From the IMG/VR virus record IMGVR_UViG_3300015050_001523, positions 64,001 through 128,000 of that record: a stretch of DNA of 64,000 nucleotides; one strand, given 5' to 3'. Both the position numbers and the translations under genes were made by a program. The notes below the pieces were generated by a model. That model did not search any database. It was not told where the DNA came from and saw nothing but the letters and a program-made list of their open reading frames with translations. This document shows, piece by piece, positions 6,737-63,950 of this stretch. How positions within the stretch are numbered: the stretch's first letter is position 1; every line of letters starts with the position of its first letter. The stretch is from a virus. Lineage: Duplodnaviria > Caudoviricetes.

Positions 6737-7942
6737 TTAGTTTTTGTTTTTCCATTCAAACTTTTTGTAATTTTCTTTTAGCCACAATTCAAATTTTGAC
6801 AAAACATCATCAATTTGATTTGTCATAAATTCTGCTGAATTCTTAAAGAAGAATGATTGAATCTTTTGATCAGCATGCTTTTGCACAAAAATCGCAAAAT
6901 CTTTCCTGGATGAAAATTCATTCTTTGAAATAAGTTCTGCAACATTCATTGCATTTAGTTCGATTTCTGAAGCATTATGCTTAATTTCGTCTGCAAATAA
7001 CTTTAATCGATCGCTAAGAACATCATAAACATCATCAATAAATCCTAAAAATATTGAATCAATAATTTGATTTTTGCTGTGCTCAATATCTCCACCACCA
7101 ACATGATGAAGGCTAACATATTTTGCATTCTTCATTTTGGCGATTGGACACAAATTTTCATCATAAACAACATATCCTTCAGGATATTTTCCATGATCTT
7201 CTATCTCTGACATTTTCTCAACAAAGAGTTTAACATCTTCTAGTGATTTATAACCAAGCAACCCAGGGAAAACTCTATGAGAAGTTACAATATTAGCTTC
7301 TGAAAATGCCCCATATAATATTTCATCATAAAGCTGAATATTACATTCATACCCCCCAGAATTACGATTTCTTGCTCCCAACAAAACAGCATGATCAAAA
7401 GGGTACTTTGTAACAATTCTGTTCTCTTCTGTGCAAAGCTCAAAAATATATGTAAATTCTTGGTTTAATTTATCCCAAAAAATGTCTCCAATTGTATCAA
7501 AAAAAAGTTGTTCAAATGTTTTATTTGCTTCGTGAGCATTTAATGTCGTGATTGAGCCAAGAGTAGAAATTTTCCATTCAATTCCAGAATGCCAAAGTTG
7601 AATGCATGTCCCATCTGACTTAATTGCCAAACTTAAATTTGGCAACCTTTCATTAAAAACCTTTGGATCAAAGATGGGGCAATGTCCTTCATGCTGATTG
7701 AAAAATTTATCAAATGGTCGGGCCATAAAGGCCCAATTTCCATTTTCATTTCTTAGGATTGAGCCACGACATTCTTTCGTAATTGGTTCTCCCCAATTGG
7801 CCGTAATCATTCCATATTTAAAAAGAAAAAATCCATCTTCTTCTTTGACATTTACTCCAAATTTTTGAGAAAAATCATTTTTAATGGCTTCATAATCACT
7901 TTTGGAATGATTAAGGTTTAAGTATTGAAGAAGATGGCTCAT
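6737..7942 (-). CDS. RNA ligase (T4 Rnl1-like nucleotidyltransferase)
   Basis: ECRGSIL, RPFDKFFN, motif I KSDGT, YIFEL..ENRIVTKY, PEGYVV, KMK. Confidence 0.85.
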   Translation of the reverse strand: MSHLLQYLNLNHSKSDYEAIKNDFSQKFGVNVKEEDGFFLFKYGMITANWGEPITKECRGSILRNENGNWAFMARPFDKFFNQHEGHCPIFDPKVFNERLPNLSLAIKSDGTCIQLWHSGIEWKISTLGSITTLNAHEANKTFEQLFFDTIGDIFWDKLNQEFTYIFELCTEENRIVTKYPFDHAVLLGARNRNSGGYECNIQLYDEILYGAFSEANIVTSHRVFPGLLGYKSLEDVKLFVEKMSEIEDHGKYPEGYVVYDENLCPIAKMKNAKYVSLHHVGGGDIEHSKNQIIDSIFLGFIDDVYDVLSDRLKLFADEIKHNASEIELNAMNVAELISKNEFSSRKDFAIFVQKHADQKIQSFFFKNSAEFMTNQIDDVLSKFELWLKENYKKFEWKNKN

Positions 7943-9428: not shown

Positions 9429-11924
9429 TTATTTGATCTTTAATTTATTTTCACTAAGAACCATTTTGACAACGGTTCCTTGTTTTACATTGTTTGTAAG
9501 AAGATATTCAGAAAGAGGTTTCAAAATTTCTTGTTTCATTAGCCTCTTTAAAGGTCGTGCGCCATATTTTGGATCATATCCATTTTCAGCTAACCATTCA
9601 CGAGCTTCAGTTGAAAGTTCTAAACTTAAATCTCTTTCACCAAGTCTTTTTTGAAGAGATTTCATTTGAATATCAAGAATGTTTATCATGTGCTCTTTGT
9701 AAAGAGGATGAAAGTAAATCATTGAATCAATTCTATTTAGAAACTCTGGTCGAAATTTGCTTTGAAGCAACTTATCTCTCGCTTCGCTAAGAGATTCTTC
9801 GTCATGATCTTGAAAATAAAGCTCTGAGCCAATATTTGAAGTTAACAATATTATTGTATTGGTAAAATCAACTGTTCTTCCTTGAGTATCTGTTAATCTT
9901 CCTTCATCAAAAACTTGAAGCATGATATTCCAAACATCTGGATGTGCTTTTTCTACTTCATCTAAAAGAACAATTGAATATGGTCGATGTCGTACAGCTT
10001 CAGTTAATTGCCCTCCTTCACTATATCCAACATATCCAGGAGGAGAACCTACCAAACGGGAAACAGAATGTTTCTCCATGTATTCACTCATATCAATTCT
10101 TACAATTGCTGATTCATCATCAAATAAGAATTCAGCAAGAGCCTTGGCTAATTCGGTTTTGCCAACACCGCTAGGACCAAGAAACAGAAAGGTTCCGACC
10201 GGCGCTTTTGGATCGGTTAGTCCTGCGCGGCTTTGGCGAATAGCATCAGAAATCGCAGAAATTGCTGGGTGTTGCCCAACAACTCTTTCATGCAATCTAT
10301 CTTCCATTAACATAAGAGAACTTTGGGTTTTTTGCTGAAGCATTTTTTCAGCAGGAATTCCTGTCCATGAAGAAATAACTTTTGCAATATCTGCTTCTTC
10401 AACTTTGTCTCGAAGATAGCTACATCCTGACTCTTGAATCTTTTTCAGAAGATCGGCATATTTTGAATACTGTTTTTCTAGTTGAGGAATATCAACATTC
10501 AAAATATTTTTTGCCAAATCAAGATTATCATCTTTTTCAGCATTTTTGACGGAATTCTTCAATGCCTCTATTGATTCAGTAATTGATTTTATTTTGCCAA
10601 TTGCTGTTTTCTCTTCTTCCCAAGAAGCTCTCATTTTCTCAACTTCAGATTCTAATTTTTTAATTTCATTATTTATTTTGATTTTTCGTTCTTTATTTTT
10701 TCTTGACTCTTCAAGGGATGAAGATTCTACATTCAACCGAAGAATTTTTCGTTCTTTTTCATCGATAACAGCCGGAAGACTTTCGATATCCATTTTCAAT
10801 TCTGCGCAAGCCTCATCAACCAAATCAATAGCTTTGTCTGGGAGACTTCTGTTTTGAATATATCGAGCACTTAGTTTTGCTGCTGCAATAAGGGCAGAAT
10901 CTTGAATAGTTAATCCATGATGATTTTGGAACTTATCGCGCAATCCTCGCAAAATGGCAATTGAATCTTCAATTGATGGCTCATTGATTCGGATTGACTG
11001 AAATCGTCGCTCTAGCTGTGGATCTTTTTCAATATATTTTTTGTATGCATCAGTTGTAGATGCGCCAATGCAACGAATTTCTCCATTGGCCAAAGCTGGT
11101 TTTAGAATGCTTGCAGCATCTTGGCCACTCTCGCTTGAACCTGTTCCCATAATGTTATGAAGATCATCAATAAATAAAATGATATCTTTTGCTTTTGAAA
11201 TGGAGGTAATAACTCCTTTTAGTCTTTCTTCAAACTGTCCTCGAAACTGGGCTCCTGCCACAAGGCTTGATAGATCAAGCTGCAAAATGGTAATATTTTT
11301 TAGAGAATCAGGAACATCATTCTTTGCAATTCTTTGAGCGATTGCAAAAACGATGCTCGTTTTACCAACCCCAGACTCTCCAATAATAACAGGATTATTT
11401 TTATTTCTTCGGCTTAAAGTTTGAATTGCCCGACGAACTTCTTGATCTCGACCAATTACAGGGTCGAGCTGGTCTTGCCTTGCAAGCCTGGTGAGGTCCC
11501 TGGTATAATTTGATAGCTCTTCTCCATATTCTTTGGGCGACACAACTTTATTGAGATCAAGTCCTTCTAAAATATGTTTGGTAGCATTTAATTCCATCAT
11601 TGCAAGAATTAAATGGTCAACAGATATTGTATTTTTTGTTTTTGTTGCAGCGACATTAAGCATTTCTTCAATATCGCTTGAATTTCTGGGATCACCAAAC
11701 CTATTGGTTCTAGGAATCTTTGTTAGTTCTTCTTTCAGACTCAAAGAAATGTCTTTAAGAGAACCTCCTGCATTTTTAATTAGAGCCTTATTTTTTTCAT
11801 CATGAATAAGCACAGCCAAAACATGAAGGGTTGTAAACTCCTGATGTTTTAGTCTTTTTGCTTGTTCAACTGCTTTAACAATAATTTTTCGGGCTGATTC
11901 TGAAACGTTTGATGGATTAAACAT
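9429..11924 (-). CDS. clpB: ClpB chaperone/disaggregase
   Basis: Clp N domain, LDPVIGRD, GESGVGKT, coiled-coil M domain, FLFLGPSGVGKTELAKALA, RIDMSEYME, GARPL; no IGF/IGL loop seen. Confidence 0.95.
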   Translation of the reverse strand: MFNPSNVSESARKIIVKAVEQAKRLKHQEFTTLHVLAVLIHDEKNKALIKNAGGSLKDISLSLKEELTKIPRTNRFGDPRNSSDIEEMLNVAATKTKNTISVDHLILAMMELNATKHILEGLDLNKVVSPKEYGEELSNYTRDLTRLARQDQLDPVIGRDQEVRRAIQTLSRRNKNNPVIIGESGVGKTSIVFAIAQRIAKNDVPDSLKNITILQLDLSSLVAGAQFRGQFEERLKGVITSISKAKDIILFIDDLHNIMGTGSSESGQDAASILKPALANGEIRCIGASTTDAYKKYIEKDPQLERRFQSIRINEPSIEDSIAILRGLRDKFQNHHGLTIQDSALIAAAKLSARYIQNRSLPDKAIDLVDEACAELKMDIESLPAVIDEKERKILRLNVESSSLEESRKNKERKIKINNEIKKLESEVEKMRASWEEEKTAIGKIKSITESIEALKNSVKNAEKDDNLDLAKNILNVDIPQLEKQYSKYADLLKKIQESGCSYLRDKVEEADIAKVISSWTGIPAEKMLQQKTQSSLMLMEDRLHERVVGQHPAISAISDAIRQSRAGLTDPKAPVGTFLFLGPSGVGKTELAKALAEFLFDDESAIVRIDMSEYMEKHSVSRLVGSPPGYVGYSEGGQLTEAVRHRPYSIVLLDEVEKAHPDVWNIMLQVFDEGRLTDTQGRTVDFTNTIILLTSNIGSELYFQDHDEESLSEARDKLLQSKFRPEFLNRIDSMIYFHPLYKEHMINILDIQMKSLQKRLGERDLSLELSTEAREWLAENGYDPKYGARPLKRLMKQEILKPLSEYLLTNNVKQGTVVKMVLSENKLKIK

Positions 11925-60390: not shown

Positions 60391-60518
60391 ATACAAAGGA
60401 TACACTGGAAACGGGGTGATGCAAGCGATCTTTGGCGATTTATTTTATGCTGCGCCTTTGGCGCTTTGGCACGGTTTGTGCATGGATTAATTTATTAATT
60501 AATAACAATTGCCTATGC

Positions 60519-60542
60519 AAAAAAAGGGCCATCGGCCCTTTT
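60519..60542 (-). terminator. intrinsic terminator
   Basis: AAAAAGGGCC-ATC-GGCCCTTTT. Confidence 0.75.
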
Positions 60543-60543
60543 A

Positions 60544-60948
60544 TCAATCCGTTTTTTCAATTTCTTTACGTATTTTTTCAATATCCAATATGGAAATTTC
60601 AGAACATCCAGCCCCACAATCAAGAAGCCTTATTTCAAGTTTGTCAATCAAACTTTGAAGAACATTCATTTCGATTCCAAGTGTAGAACATGCGTCCCAT
60701 GTAGTAAGTGTGGAACCCATGTAAACTGCCGATTTTGAAAGGTTCGCAATTCGAGATTTAATTTCTGACAATTTTCCAATAGATGAAAGACCACAAAAAG
60801 TAGCGAAGATTTTAATTTCACGACCAGTCTTTAGATTGTTTTCAATCAAGGCCAAAGAGTCTTGAAAGTTCGACTTCTCAATCATTTCCTTTAGTTCGCG
60901 TGCCTTCATGCTTTTATGATACCATATAACAAATGAAGCGCAACCCAT
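60544..60948 (-). CDS. hypothetical helical protein (start probably MKAREL)
   Basis: ORF followed by a terminator. Confidence 0.6.
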   Translation of the reverse strand: MGCASFVIWYHKSMKARELKEMIEKSNFQDSLALIENNLKTGREIKIFATFCGLSSIGKLSEIKSRIANLSKSAVYMGSTLTTWDACSTLGIEMNVLQSLIDKLEIRLLDCGAGCSEISILDIEKIRKEIEKTD

Positions 60949-60960
60949 TTAATGGAAATA

Positions 60961-60985
60961 AAAAAGGGCGCATAATGCGCCCTTT
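60961..60985 (-). terminator. intrinsic terminator after the AAA ATPase gene
   Basis: AAAGGGCGCA-TAA-TGCGCCCTTT. Confidence 0.75.
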
Positions 60986-61021
60986 CATTTTTTTATTCTA
61001 TTTTTTGGCGCTTTGGCGCCT

Positions 61022-62098
61022 TTAGCGCTTCTCTACCATTTGAAGCATGCGAGCATGATGCTTCCAACGCTCACCAGGCAGTTGCATGCGATAGTTGCAA
61101 AGATGGACAATGAGCCGCAAGGAAAGCTGGCGCCACTTATTCACGTTTTCGTGAACAAAGTCAAGAATTTCTTGCTGGATTTTGGGGTCAGTGACCCCAT
61201 TTTCCACCATAATCCCAGAATCCTGGCAAACCTGAACAACGCGCAGAAGCCGCCGTCGCTTTGAAAAGAGCCCGAGATTCATGTAACCAGAGCGCGACAG
61301 AAGCGCCTTGACATGCTCGGCCTTTTTGGAGCCAGATTCGCATTCTCGCTGAAAATCGATATTTGTCAGGAACAAAATTCGACCCTGGAAATCAATAGAA
61401 TTTGGGATATCCTCCTTTTGAAGAGTACCAGATTCCTTGAGCCAGCAAATCTTGCGCGCCCTTCCCGGCGGCAAAACTTCAAGCGCTGCCTTCAAGAGAT
61501 TAAGAGTCGTTTCATCTTTGAAAACGCTATCGCAATCATCAAAGCAAAGCACGCCACCTTCAGATGCGCGATGAAGTGCCATGTAGAGATTGATGGGAGA
61601 AATATCCCCCTTAATCAATTCATAGTAAATTCCATCCTCGATTGCCTTTTCGGCATACTTGCCGATACAGTGACTTTTGCCGCAACCGGCAGGGCCGCTG
61701 ATCAGAGTGCTCGGGCGATTGCCCAAAACAACCTGCTCGACACACTCCTCAAAGGTTTCAAATCGACCGGCAATTTCGGTAATAATTTCATCATCCGAAA
61801 GAAGATCGTCAGGATCCTGATAGACAAATTCATTCGCCTCGCGGGGAGTAGCAGGAGCAGATCCAGATCGGGCGAAGCCTGGAGCGAAATCGCCCGAAGC
61901 AACCGCATCAGCCAAGGCGCGCATAGTTTGCGCAAGACGAGGGCTAATAGACTTGCTAGGATCATTGAGAGTCTGAGAGATCGTTGGCTGACTAACACTA
62001 TGTCCAAGCTTGTTAGCCTTGTCAGTCGCGGCCTTCTGCCATCCATGATTAGGATAGCCAAGCGCCTTACAGATCGTCATAAATTCGTCGTGATTCAT
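61022..62098 (-). CDS. N-terminal HTH plus AAA+ ATPase
   Basis: VSQPTISQTL helix; Walker A GPAGCGKS; Walker B LCFDDCD; ILFLTN; GC-rich; promoter TTGCGT-16-TATCAT (62144-62171). Confidence 0.8.
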   Translation of the reverse strand: MNHDEFMTICKALGYPNHGWQKAATDKANKLGHSVSQPTISQTLNDPSKSISPRLAQTMRALADAVASGDFAPGFARSGSAPATPREANEFVYQDPDDLLSDDEIITEIAGRFETFEECVEQVVLGNRPSTLISGPAGCGKSHCIGKYAEKAIEDGIYYELIKGDISPINLYMALHRASEGGVLCFDDCDSVFKDETTLNLLKAALEVLPPGRARKICWLKESGTLQKEDIPNSIDFQGRILFLTNIDFQRECESGSKKAEHVKALLSRSGYMNLGLFSKRRRLLRVVQVCQDSGIMVENGVTDPKIQQEILDFVHENVNKWRQLSLRLIVHLCNYRMQLPGERWKHHARMLQMVEKR

Positions 62099-62468
62099 TT
62101 TGTCTCGTTTGTTCGGGTTCGGTAAGGTTCCTGTCTCCCCCTCATGATAGCTTGAAGCCGACTTGACGCAAGGAACCTTCGCAACAAATTTCTTTCACCC
62201 TTTGGCATCCTTTATGCATCAATCCAAAATTATTACTAAACAAAATAAATGGTATGCAGCATCCGTGCCAAGCCTTTGCTTGGCGGGACCACTATAAAGG
62301 ATCGGAAGCATCTTTGCCGAAAAGGAAATGATTTCAATGGCTTGCGAGATTTGTCTGAAAAAGAGACCGGCCGAGGTTGCACTTCGAAGGTTATCGTCCA
62401 TACTGTGAGGGTGGTCGGGAAAGAGCCCGCCACGCCCAACCAAACCAAAAAGAAAGAAGATACCAATC

Positions 62469-63092
62469 ATGACCACCGAAACCGTCACCGCTCCCGCTGC
62501 CACCGAAACCGCCACCGCTCCCGCGAAGCCCGCTGGCCGCCCGCGCAAGATCTCCGATAAGGCCCTGGCTCGTGCCGAGCAGCTCTATGACTCTGGCCAG
62601 ACCATCGCGCAGATCTGTAGTCAGCCCTGGTGCAATGTCGGCCCTGCCGCGCTTTACTACCACTTCGCTGGCCGTTCGCCCAAGGGCGATTCTGGCGTCG
62701 AAATGCGACCGCGCGGTCGCAAGGGTCCGAATCCCACGCAGCTCGCGCACCTACTTGCCGAGTTTGAAAAGGGCCGCACCCTGACCGAGATCCGGGAGGA
62801 TGCCGTGCTTTGCTCGCGCGTCAAGGTCAAGAACCCCGCTGAAGGTGAGCCGGCGAGTAAGAAGCATATGTTCTCACTGGCCACGCTCAGCAAGGCCGTG
62901 AAGGATGCGGGATTCACGCCGCGCCGCGGCCGACCGGCGAATCCGGTTGCGGTTGAGGAGGTTGCGGAGGTTGCGGAGGTTGCGGCCGAGCCCGCTGCCG
63001 ACGCTCCGATGGCTGCTGAGCCGGTTGCGGAGGTTGCGGCCGAGCCCATGGCCGAGGCTCCGATGGTCGACGAGGCGAGCGCCGCGGAGTAA
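62469..63092 (+). CDS. tandem Hin/resolvase-type HTH DNA-binding protein with acidic tail
   Basis: GRPRKIS..A.QL..SG.TIAQIC..VGPAALYYHF, second HTH, RRGRP; no catalytic recombinase domain. Confidence 0.7.
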   Translation: MTTETVTAPAATETATAPAKPAGRPRKISDKALARAEQLYDSGQTIAQICSQPWCNVGPAALYYHFAGRSPKGDSGVEMRPRGRKGPNPTQLAHLLAEFEKGRTLTEIREDAVLCSRVKVKNPAEGEPASKKHMFSLATLSKAVKDAGFTPRRGRPANPVAVEEVAEVAEVAAEPAADAPMAAEPVAEVAAEPMAEAPMVDEASAAE

Positions 63093-63099
63093 TCCATGA

Positions 63100-63174
63100 A
63101 TGGTGGGAGGGTTTCCCCTCCCACCATATTATTTTAATCTTAATTTAAGGTGCGCCAATCGCGCACCTTTTTTT
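63100..63174 (+). terminator. two tandem hairpins/terminators
   Basis: ATGGTGGGAGG/CCTCCCACCAT and AAGGTGCGC/GCGCACCTT followed by T tract. Confidence 0.75.
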
Positions 63175-63270
63175 ATGGACATCAAAAATTAATTAATTAA
63201 TAACAAGCCTTATGCATGAAAGATGCCAAAGCGCCAAAGGCGCGGCATAAATTAAATCGACCGAAGATGC

Positions 63271-63298
63271 TTGCATCCTGATTTAGATAAGCTATCTT
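63271..63298 (+). promoter_or_regulatory. sigma70-like promoter for TL3/TL4
   Basis: TTGCAT-16-TATCTT; +7 falls on the first nt of TL3. Confidence 0.7.
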
Positions 63299-63304
63299 TA
63301 GGTC

Positions 63305-63420
63305 TGAGGATAGGCGAGATAAAGGAAAGACCAAGGGGCTCTGCCAAGAACCAAGGTCACTATTTCCAGGAACACGCAAGCTGGCAGGCTTTCTCCCGGG
63401 TTCGAATCCTGGATCCTCAT
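63305..63420 (+). ncRNA. 116-nt tRNA-like RNA TL3
   Basis: TGAGGAT/ATCCTCA acceptor, CCGGG-TTCGAAT-CCTGG T arm, no canonical anticodon arm. Confidence 0.65.
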
Positions 63421-63426
63421 TTTTGA

Positions 63427-63547
63427 CGGTATGAGACGAATAGGAGCACGTCTGCACCAAGCCACCCCGGTGCAAGAGATCTAAAGATCTATGCGAAAGC
63501 TAAGGATTTATTTAGATTTATAGTTGGTTCGAATCCAGCCATATCGA
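63427..63547 (+). ncRNA. 121-nt tRNA-like RNA TL4 (G3.U70, A73)
   Basis: CGGTATG/CATATCG acceptor, D arm, 6-bp arm with 10-nt loop, extra hairpins, GTTGG-TTCGAAT-CCAGC. Confidence 0.7.
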
Positions 63548-63590
63548 AATTTTAATTGGACATCAAACCTTCTCATGCTAGGATTTTAAC

Positions 63591-63920
63591 ATGTTCAGGC
63601 AAATGAAAATTGTCGTTGAAGTTTCGCCCGAGCTTGCTGCTGGCATGAGCGAGTCTCAATTGGCGCGACTCGCGCGAGGGATTGATATCTCCTCATGTTA
63701 TCGAGGAATTAGGATTGATGGATTTCAAGATCCTCAAGTTTTTGATTCGCTTGGAAACGCTGTTATGTTCCTTCTAAACACGTCCGCGACCGAGCGAGCC
63801 CTGTCCCTTGCTTGTGGAGGAAAAGCGACTGCTACGGGCTTGTGGAGGCATGACCGAGCCGAATTCTTTAGGCTCGCGGCCGAGGCTCTTTACAATCATC
63901 GAAATCTTTTTTGGCCTTGA
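63591..63920 (+). CDS. hypothetical protein (leaderless)
   Basis: ATG 7 nt after TGGACA-16-TAGGAT. Confidence 0.65.
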   Translation: MFRQMKIVVEVSPELAAGMSESQLARLARGIDISSCYRGIRIDGFQDPQVFDSLGNAVMFLLNTSATERALSLACGGKATATGLWRHDRAEFFRLAAEALYNHRNLFWP

Positions 63921-63950
63921 CTCCCTCGAAATATAGGCTATAACCAAATC

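Follow-up and report, generated by a model that had tools for sequence, protein, structure and literature searches.

TL4, a tRNA-shaped RNA encoded on the plus strand of a freshwater jumbo phage, has the frame of a tRNA and is incapable of reading codons. It is not a mini-tmRNA; it is a narrowly distributed addition to the known but unexplained tRNA look-alikes of phages. With moderate confidence, we regard it as a functional, non-decoding, lineage-restricted tRNA mimic that would be made together with a companion RNA, TL3, and matured by tRNA-processing enzymes. The stretch of DNA analysed, referred to here as the window, comprises 64,000 nucleotides (bases 64001-128000 of an IMG/VR virus record of 322,518 bp, or 322 kb), and the remainder of the phage genome and related contigs were drawn upon for comparison.

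Taken by itself, TL4 is no great surprise, and the claim that it is an alanine-charged mini-tmRNA does not hold. The wider interest lies in the many unannotated RNAs carried by phages that are tRNA-like in outer frame yet cannot decode, the T4 examples of which have gone unexplained for around 50 years. TL4 can be dated, being present in the closest strains and absent where its older partner TL3 persists, and it sits in an RNA-only cassette with its own promoter. The TL3-TL4 locus is a compact test bed for the origin of tRNA mimics and for the question of which tRNA-handling machinery they address.

Setting and anatomy of the TL3-TL4 cassette

The phage genome is approximately 33% GC and its minus strand carries most of the genes. 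The phage helicase shares at most 35% identity with any GenBank phage protein. Freshwater and lake samples account for most of the metagenomic runs in which parts of the locus occur; one run is a crustacean metagenome, and no RNA run was among them. At around 125-147 kb of the genome lies a GC-richer island (GC up to 44-49%), which is an array of small plus-strand cassettes. The TL3-TL4 locus is found at the left edge of this island, within a 498-nt intergenic gap that is flanked on one side by the gene for a 207-aa HTH_7/AT-hook-like protein and on the other by a 109-aa ORF. The HTH_7 gene has two terminator hairpins at its end and its product has no catalytic domain. TL4 is distant from the tRNA clusters of the phage and forms part of a promoter-driven cassette of its own, the features of which are as follows.

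63271 to 63298, plus strand: cassette promoter, with a -35 box TTGCAT (63271-76), a 16-nt spacer and a -10 box TATCTT (63293-98)
63305 to 63420, plus strand: TL3, the companion tRNA-shaped RNA and first in the cassette; acceptor stem perfect over 7 bp, T arm canonical, core large and non-canonical
63421 to 63426, plus strand: spacer TTTTGA between TL3 and TL4, 6 nt, a spacing like that of tandem phage tRNA genes
63427 to 63547, plus strand: TL4, the whole tRNA-shaped RNA, 121 nt including the discriminator A63547, with no encoded CCA
63427 to 63433, plus strand: 5' strand of the TL4 acceptor stem, CGGTATG, pairing with CATATCG at 63540-63546
63434 to 63452, plus strand: D region of TL4, consisting of an AG linker (63434-35), the stem, the loop and then a C
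63453 to 63474, plus strand: anticodon-like arm of TL4, a 6-bp stem TGCACC/GGTGCA (63453-58 and 63469-74)
63475 to 63522, plus strand: AT-rich extra arm of TL4 in the position of the variable region, 48 nt
63523 to 63539, plus strand: T arm of TL4, GTTGG-TTCGAAT-CCAGC, with one U.G among its 5 bp and a canonical T loop
63557 to 63584, plus strand: promoter of the next cassette, TGGACA, a 16-nt spacer and TG-TAGGAT, serving the 109-aa ORF at 63591-63920

The anatomy described in an earlier note on this DNA, comprising the acceptor stem, D arm, anticodon-like arm, hairpins and T arm, was confirmed element by element. The 7-bp acceptor stem contains the pairs C1-G72, G2-C71 and G3.U70 (G63429.T63544), the discriminator is A73 (A63547) and position 8 is an A rather than a U. 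The D stem ACG/CGT (63436-38 and 63449-51) has an alternative reading as GACG/CGTC, with 4-5 bp, and encloses the 10-nt loop AATAGGAGCA, which contains GG. Class II tRNAs have this layout of a 3-bp D stem with a large loop plus a long extra arm. The anticodon-like stem carries the 10-nt loop AAGCCACCCC, closed by a C-G pair, which has no U33 and is not of the 7-nt size. RNAfold draws the extra arm as a single long bulged hairpin of 14 bp with a GNRA mini-hairpin, GC-GAAA-GC, as its cap; an alternative pairing consists of AGATC-TAAA-GATCT plus GC-GAAA-GC.

The cloverleaf is both the minimum-free-energy fold and the centroid of TL4 in RNAfold, at -36 kcal/mol (z = -3.67), and none of 200 shuffled sequences was equally stable. 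No stem pair of the cloverleaf is mismatched, all four stems and the extra arm being intact, and the fold is the same when TL4 is folded jointly with TL3. Metagenome contigs from other studies cover 63269-63457 and 63239-63486 (TL3 into TL4) as well as 63513-63662 (TL4 into the next gene), and TL4 is found at the same site in contigs from at least three studies. Because both junctions occur in independent metagenome assemblies, TL4 is no assembly artefact. A target for its 10-nt loop within the phage genome is ruled out, as a 9-10-mer complementary to the loop has no other match there.

ARAGORN, in both default and intron mode, made no tRNA call for TL4, and Rfam, including RF00005, did not match it at gathering thresholds, nor at E<=10 on 266 nt. 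Trimming the extra arm in silico to 5 nt alone left ARAGORN silent, while taking 43 nt out of the extra arm and 3 nt out of the loop (10 to 7 nt) produced a tRNA call. The acceptor, D, stem and T parts of TL4 therefore satisfy tRNA criteria and the loop and extra arm do not. TL4 has the 7-bp acceptor stem, the 5-bp T arm with a T-psi-C loop and the GG-containing D loop of a decoding tRNA, and it has neither a 7-nt anticodon loop with U33 nor an anticodon that could be read. The earlier view that TL4 cannot decode is thus borne out by the 10-nt loop without U33, the 48-nt extra arm and the ARAGORN and Rfam misses. ARAGORN finds 37 tRNAs in the whole phage genome, and since none of the 37 encodes its CCA, the missing CCA of TL4 is uninformative. 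No gene for a CCA-adding enzyme, SmpB or AlaRS was found in the phage genome, which means that the host enzymes would have to act.

A protein-coding role was rejected: relatives have single-base indels at 63321, 63363 and 63393 that would disrupt any frame, the cassette is without a credible ORF, and no homologues were found, the use of a spurious 92-aa antisense ORF as search bait included.

The promoter motif of the cassette, CTTGCATC...TATC(C/T)T, occurs at least 11 times on both strands at 124-140 kb of the genome (window 60400-64000 plus L002). An ATG usually stands 6-7 nt past the -10 box, which implies leaderless mRNAs and an array of leaderless small genes, and base 1 of TL3 sits 6 nt past its -10 box, as the ATGs do. 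The motif before TL3 is conserved in the relative L004; a strict sigma-70 scan did not list it. That scan type also gave no sigma-70-type promoter between TL3 and TL4, so that TL4 would most simply be the second unit of a dimeric precursor, and no terminator was found after TL4. The downstream limit of the RNA cassette is the next-cassette promoter, whose -10 box is conserved in L004 along with the start of the ORF; the 109-aa ORF is near-leaderless behind TG-TAGGAT. An 18-nt direct repeat (63169-86 and 63550-67; TTTTTTATGGACATCAAA and TTTTAATTGGACATCAAA, 15/18 identical and 381 nt apart) brackets the spacer-promoter-TL3-TL4 unit, and its second copy contributes the -35 box of the next gene. 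The repeat suggests gain or loss of cassettes by recombination at boundary strings of this kind.

Tandem repeats were also seen within the neighbouring HTH gene, the 3' end of which (window 62933-63076; 63% GC) is made of 9-nt and 54-nt units that encode an acidic tail of the (E/P)VAEVAA type. Its homologues in relatives vary in length, with 191, 220 and 239 aa vs 207 aa here.

Elsewhere in the genome, a 537-aa TROVE/Ro60-like protein is encoded at 180-182 kb (L005:1501-1728, minus strand; 26.8 bits, above the Pfam cut-off). A YrlA-like RNA lies beside its gene (L005:2764-2869, minus strand; RF02553, 35.7 bits, E = 2e-5, below the gathering score), with a second similar T-arm element at genome position 180096 on the minus strand, and the TROVE/YrlA pair is located within the main tRNA cluster. 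Two further oversized tRNA-like genes are called by ARAGORN in intron mode only. One (L002:13059-13160, minus strand; genome 135059-135160) is 102 nt long; its loop at the anticodon position has 17 nt, and in its acceptor stem and T arm it resembles the phage tRNA-Arg(TCT). The other (window 35150-35295, minus strand) is 146 nt long and lies between tRNA-Gly and tRNA-Glu. The minus strand of the window also encodes a T4 Rnl1-type RNA ligase (6737-7942; phrog_562, E = 2e-47) and a Lon-like ATP-dependent protease (9429-11924; phrog_4871). The presence of the ligase is a hint that damage to tRNAs, and its repair, may play a part in the biology of this phage.

Relatives and the age of the two RNAs

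Traces of TL4 were confined to close relatives. In run X1, the share of sampled 31-mers present was 0.32 for TL3-TL4 vs 0.11 for the flanks, and the X1 contig that covers TL3 differs from the window at 2/144 positions. A contig of X9/X10, which are perhaps one data set filed twice, has 12 substitutions or indels in the 173 nt before TL4 (about 7%) and no listed change in at least the first 45 nt or so of TL4 (63427-63471), a span that stops some 15 nt short of the end of coverage, since changes near contig ends are not listed. The contrast between the start of TL4 and the sequence upstream is suggestive only (rough Poisson P of about 0.04), and a recent origin, instead of selection, could account for the low divergence of TL4. 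The contigs, which cover none of 63487-63512 in the extra arm, revealed a single substitution inside TL4.

Homologues of the downstream ORF led to L004, in which that ORF is 83-84% identical. There the order is promoter, TL3 homologue, a T8 run and the next promoter, and TL4 is absent. In a second contig of the L004 lineage, the one carrying P0002, the intergenic gap measures 260 nt vs 498 nt here, which is too short for both RNAs, and this contig is probably without TL4. Homologues of the HTH protein (52% identical) led to three long contigs, L008-L010, in which the HTH gene is immediately followed by a TL3-like RNA with an encoded A-CCA at its end and a hairpin terminator behind it; TL4 is absent from these as well. 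The absence of TL4 from L004 and from L008-L010 marks it as dispensable for this phage group.

Relatives of TL3 were traced over a greater distance. Members of its family, which has no Rfam match, were placed at window 63305-63420, at L004:153-268 (approximate) and at L008:6770-6872, as well as in L009 and L010. They lie downstream of the HTH_7/AT-hook-like gene, with a gene for a phrog_1250 AAA_16-type ATPase adjacent, down to 52% protein identity. The middle pair of the TL3 T stem is G.U, G-C or A-U among relatives, with a G.A mismatch in X9/X10, and the central helix CTGCCA/TGGCAG becomes CAGCCA/TGGCTG in L004. Judged from these comparisons, the changes in TL3 mostly keep its stems, and TL3 is the old, conserved RNA of the module. 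TL4, with a D region that resembles that of TL3 and the same T loop, would be either a young addition or one that has been repeatedly lost. Its presence in only the closest relatives points to a young gene.

Searches for further copies of TL4 were negative. A covariance model of TL4 (R1) found only TL4 itself in the 322-kb genome, and nhmmer and blastn-short revealed no second copy there. No TL4 homologue was recovered by exact-pattern scans of IMG/VR (T arm plus acceptor strand; anticodon-like arm; gapped TL3 pattern), by searches of JGI metagenome contigs with a 5' 22-mer and a 3' 24-mer (Y allowed at position 70) or by a scan of GTDB genomes. Blastn against 50,697 GenBank phage records gave chance matches only (E = 0.9), and the neighbouring ORFs had no relatives in IMG/VR or GTDB. 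With filters off, R1 scored tRNA-Pro at 24.3 bits, T4 rnaC at 21.9, the L008 TL3-like RNA at 17.1, TL3 at 10.6 and the other tRNAs of the phage at 8-16 bits. These scores are at the level of any tRNA and demonstrate no homology. Descent of TL4 from a given phage tRNA was likewise rejected, the best candidate, tRNA-Pro, sharing generic features only.

The alanine mark, the proposed role and competing readings

The earlier note had read G3.U70 together with A73 as an alanine mark. The mark is present in this strain, and the phage's own tRNA-Ala has the same G3.U70 and A73, but it is not conserved. In the close-relative run X1, T63544>C gives G3-C70, by which pairing is retained and the wobble is gone (one contig at a k-mer depth of 7.9, with the 5' acceptor strand of that strain outside its coverage). 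Loss of G3.U70 in homologues is what the earlier note itself had said would count against its reading, and the X1 contig provides an instance of it. U70>C is the sole change seen in a TL4 stem, and since it retains the pair it would fit a structural rather than an identity constraint on the stem.

G3.U70 confers alanine acceptance even on minihelices, and the host AlaRS presumably uses the G3.U70/A73 marks of the phage tRNA-Ala, making alanine charging of TL4 possible in this strain. Because G3.U70 is not a conserved property, such charging is probably not the selected function of TL4. There is a slim chance that TL4 of this strain receives CCA and alanine via G3.U70/A73 and acts as a non-ribosomal mimic of alanyl-tRNA, with the U70/C70 polymorphism as an on/off switch; it might then, for example, be a decoy for a host defence enzyme that attacks tRNA acceptor ends, or an aminoacyl donor.

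The suggestion that TL4 is a minimal tmRNA-like rescuer found no support. ARAGORN's tmRNA mode, which had been proposed as a check, reported no tmRNA in the window or the genome at default -m settings, and at -ps80 gave noise-level tmRNA calls only across the whole genome. The Rfam tmRNA covariance models did not match at E<=10 on 266 nt. The fold of TL4 is a plain cloverleaf plus one hairpin, with no pseudoknots and no P2 helix, and no SmpB is encoded by the phage (the host presumably has one). The internal frame ARDLKIYAKA, which the earlier note had thought loosely tag-like, indeed has no in-frame stop inside the RNA, but its reading as a tag is unsupported: the frame traverses the T arm and the acceptor strand and meets its first stop 6 nt past the RNA.

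TL4 has retained the features by which processing and 3'-end enzymes would recognise a tRNA: its 7-bp acceptor stem stacks on the 5-bp T arm, and it has the T loop and an elbow-forming GG D loop. In the mechanism we propose, the cassette promoter would transcribe a TL3-TL4 precursor from a predicted start at base 1 of TL3, with TL4 as its second unit. RNase P would release the 5' end of TL4, while the 3' end would be trimmed and given CCA by the host enzyme, as all 37 CCA-less phage tRNAs require. The mature RNA may then serve, off the ribosome, as a decoy or scaffold, engaging a factor from host or phage that recognises the acceptor/T-arm/elbow half of a tRNA. The wider set of tRNA mimics in this phage makes a functional reading of TL4 reasonable.

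The patchy distribution of TL4 keeps another reading alive. We consider it unlikely, if well worth keeping in mind, that TL4 is a functionless passenger of the TL3 cassette, a tRNA or TL3-like gene that was recently duplicated or inserted, has acquired insertions and has yet to decay. Its restriction to the closest relatives and absence from L004 and L008-L010, the lack of a paralogue or homologue elsewhere among the searched data, a D region like that of TL3 with an identical T loop, and the polymorphic G3.U70 would all be expected of such a relic, and the T run that ends TL3 may already stop much of the transcription. Four intact stems and a 14-bp extra arm free of mismatches argue the other way, as does the 5' part of TL4 in X9/X10, which has no listed change compared with some 7% in TL3 and the spacer; moreover, the extra arm is a well-formed hairpin with a GNRA cap and not random filler. 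The alanine reading, by which the host AlaRS would charge TL4 via G3.U70/A73 and TL4 would serve as a tmRNA-like rescuer of minimal form, as an alanyl donor or as a decoy for AlaRS or EF-Tu, can call on G3.U70, A73 and G2-C71 in this strain and on the same marks in the phage tRNA-Ala. It is made quite improbable by C70 in X1, the silence of ARAGORN (default) and Rfam (E<=10) on tmRNA, the missing pseudoknots, P2 and in-RNA stop, and the absence of phage SmpB and AlaRS, and a single G.U in a 7-bp stem would fall at 3:70 in the right orientation by chance in about 1 of 14 cases.

Two further readings were considered. TL4 could be a cis-acting module of the TL3 transcript, in which an RNase P cut sets the 3' trailer of TL3, or a barrier to exonucleases or to transcription running on into the next leaderless gene. 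Its position 6 nt behind TL3 and immediately ahead of the next promoter would suit this role, and tRNA-like processing signals are known elsewhere, mascRNA being an example. The TL3 homologue of L008 directly follows the hairpin of the HTH gene with no intervening promoter motif seen, and tRNA-shaped elements may thus be used at transcript ends in these phages. We nevertheless find the cis-acting role improbable, given that relatives manage without TL4 (L004 has a T8 run, L008 a hairpin terminator) and that a processing signal would not need a complete D arm, an anticodon-like arm and an extra arm of 48 nt. That TL4 is the footprint of a mobile event, whether an inserted tRNA-like sequence or, at the margin of the GC-richer island, a site where an integrating element attaches, seems very improbable. 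Presence or absence at one exact site between relatives, the short similar A/T-rich strings ATTTTTGA and AATTTTAA at its flanks, the 18-nt direct repeat around the whole cassette and the location at the left edge of the 125-147 kb island are compatible with such an event, but no integrase or transposase is found nearby, the HTH_7 protein has no catalytic domain and the genome holds no second copy; the flanking strings are weak and the island of cassettes extends to both sides.

Comparison with known RNAs

Our favoured reading of TL4 as a functional, non-decoding tRNA mimic can be set against four kinds of known RNA. With the tRNA-like domain of tmRNA (SsrA), TL4 shares the G3.U70/A73 acceptor stem, a canonical T arm and the lack of a decoding anticodon. 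It differs in that the places of P2 and the pseudoknots of tmRNA are taken by a D stem and an anticodon-like hairpin, in its want of a message domain with a stop codon and in its length of 121 nt, typical tmRNAs being around 260-400 nt.

Class II tRNAs (bacterial Leu, Ser and Tyr) and tRNA pseudogenes have in common with TL4 the 7/5 frame of acceptor stem and T arm, the TTCGAAT T loop, the GG D loop, the short D stem with its large loop and the extra arm between the anticodon and T arms. The extra arm of class II tRNAs is about 13-21 nt long, however, compared with 48 nt in TL4, and TL4 is further set apart by its 10-nt loop without U33 and by A8.

Bacterial and phage Y RNAs of the YrlA type are partners of Ro60/Rsr (PMC4201824), and like them TL4 is a phage-encoded, non-decoding tRNA mimic, located roughly 53 kb from the TROVE gene of this phage. 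YrlA RNAs are circularly permuted, with ends at the would-be anticodon and a loop-closed acceptor stem, whereas TL4 ends at the acceptor stem. Its topology is not permuted, and no match to the YrlA model RF02553 was obtained at E<=10.

T4 provides the remaining comparison in its species 1 and species 2 stable RNAs (rnaC and rnaD), which are phage-encoded, non-decoding and of unknown function (PMC3014915, PMC9697503). Like TL3 and TL4, these form a tandem (119 + 139 nt) with 6 nt between them, in T4 behind tRNA-Arg, and rnaC, like TL4, ends with a canonical T arm and a closing stem and has a hairpin immediately ahead of that arm. The 3' 92 nt of T4 rnaC (L012:1110-1201, minus strand) can be drawn as a tRNA-like unit with the stem CGGAACG/CGUUUCG, containing C1-G72, G2-C71 and G3.U70, and with the hairpin ahead of the canonical T arm; the minimum-free-energy fold instead uses the true 5' end. 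Homology between TL4 and rnaC was considered and found no support, the R1 score of 21.9 bits being inside the 8-24 bit range of the phage's ordinary tRNAs. Unlike rnaC and rnaD, TL4 retains a D arm and an anticodon-like arm, and it belongs to a promoter-driven cassette away from tRNA clusters in one narrow freshwater lineage. As tandem genes for non-decoding RNAs with tRNA-like ends, TL3 and TL4 are of the same kind as T4 rnaC and rnaD, a kind that is not a sequence family.
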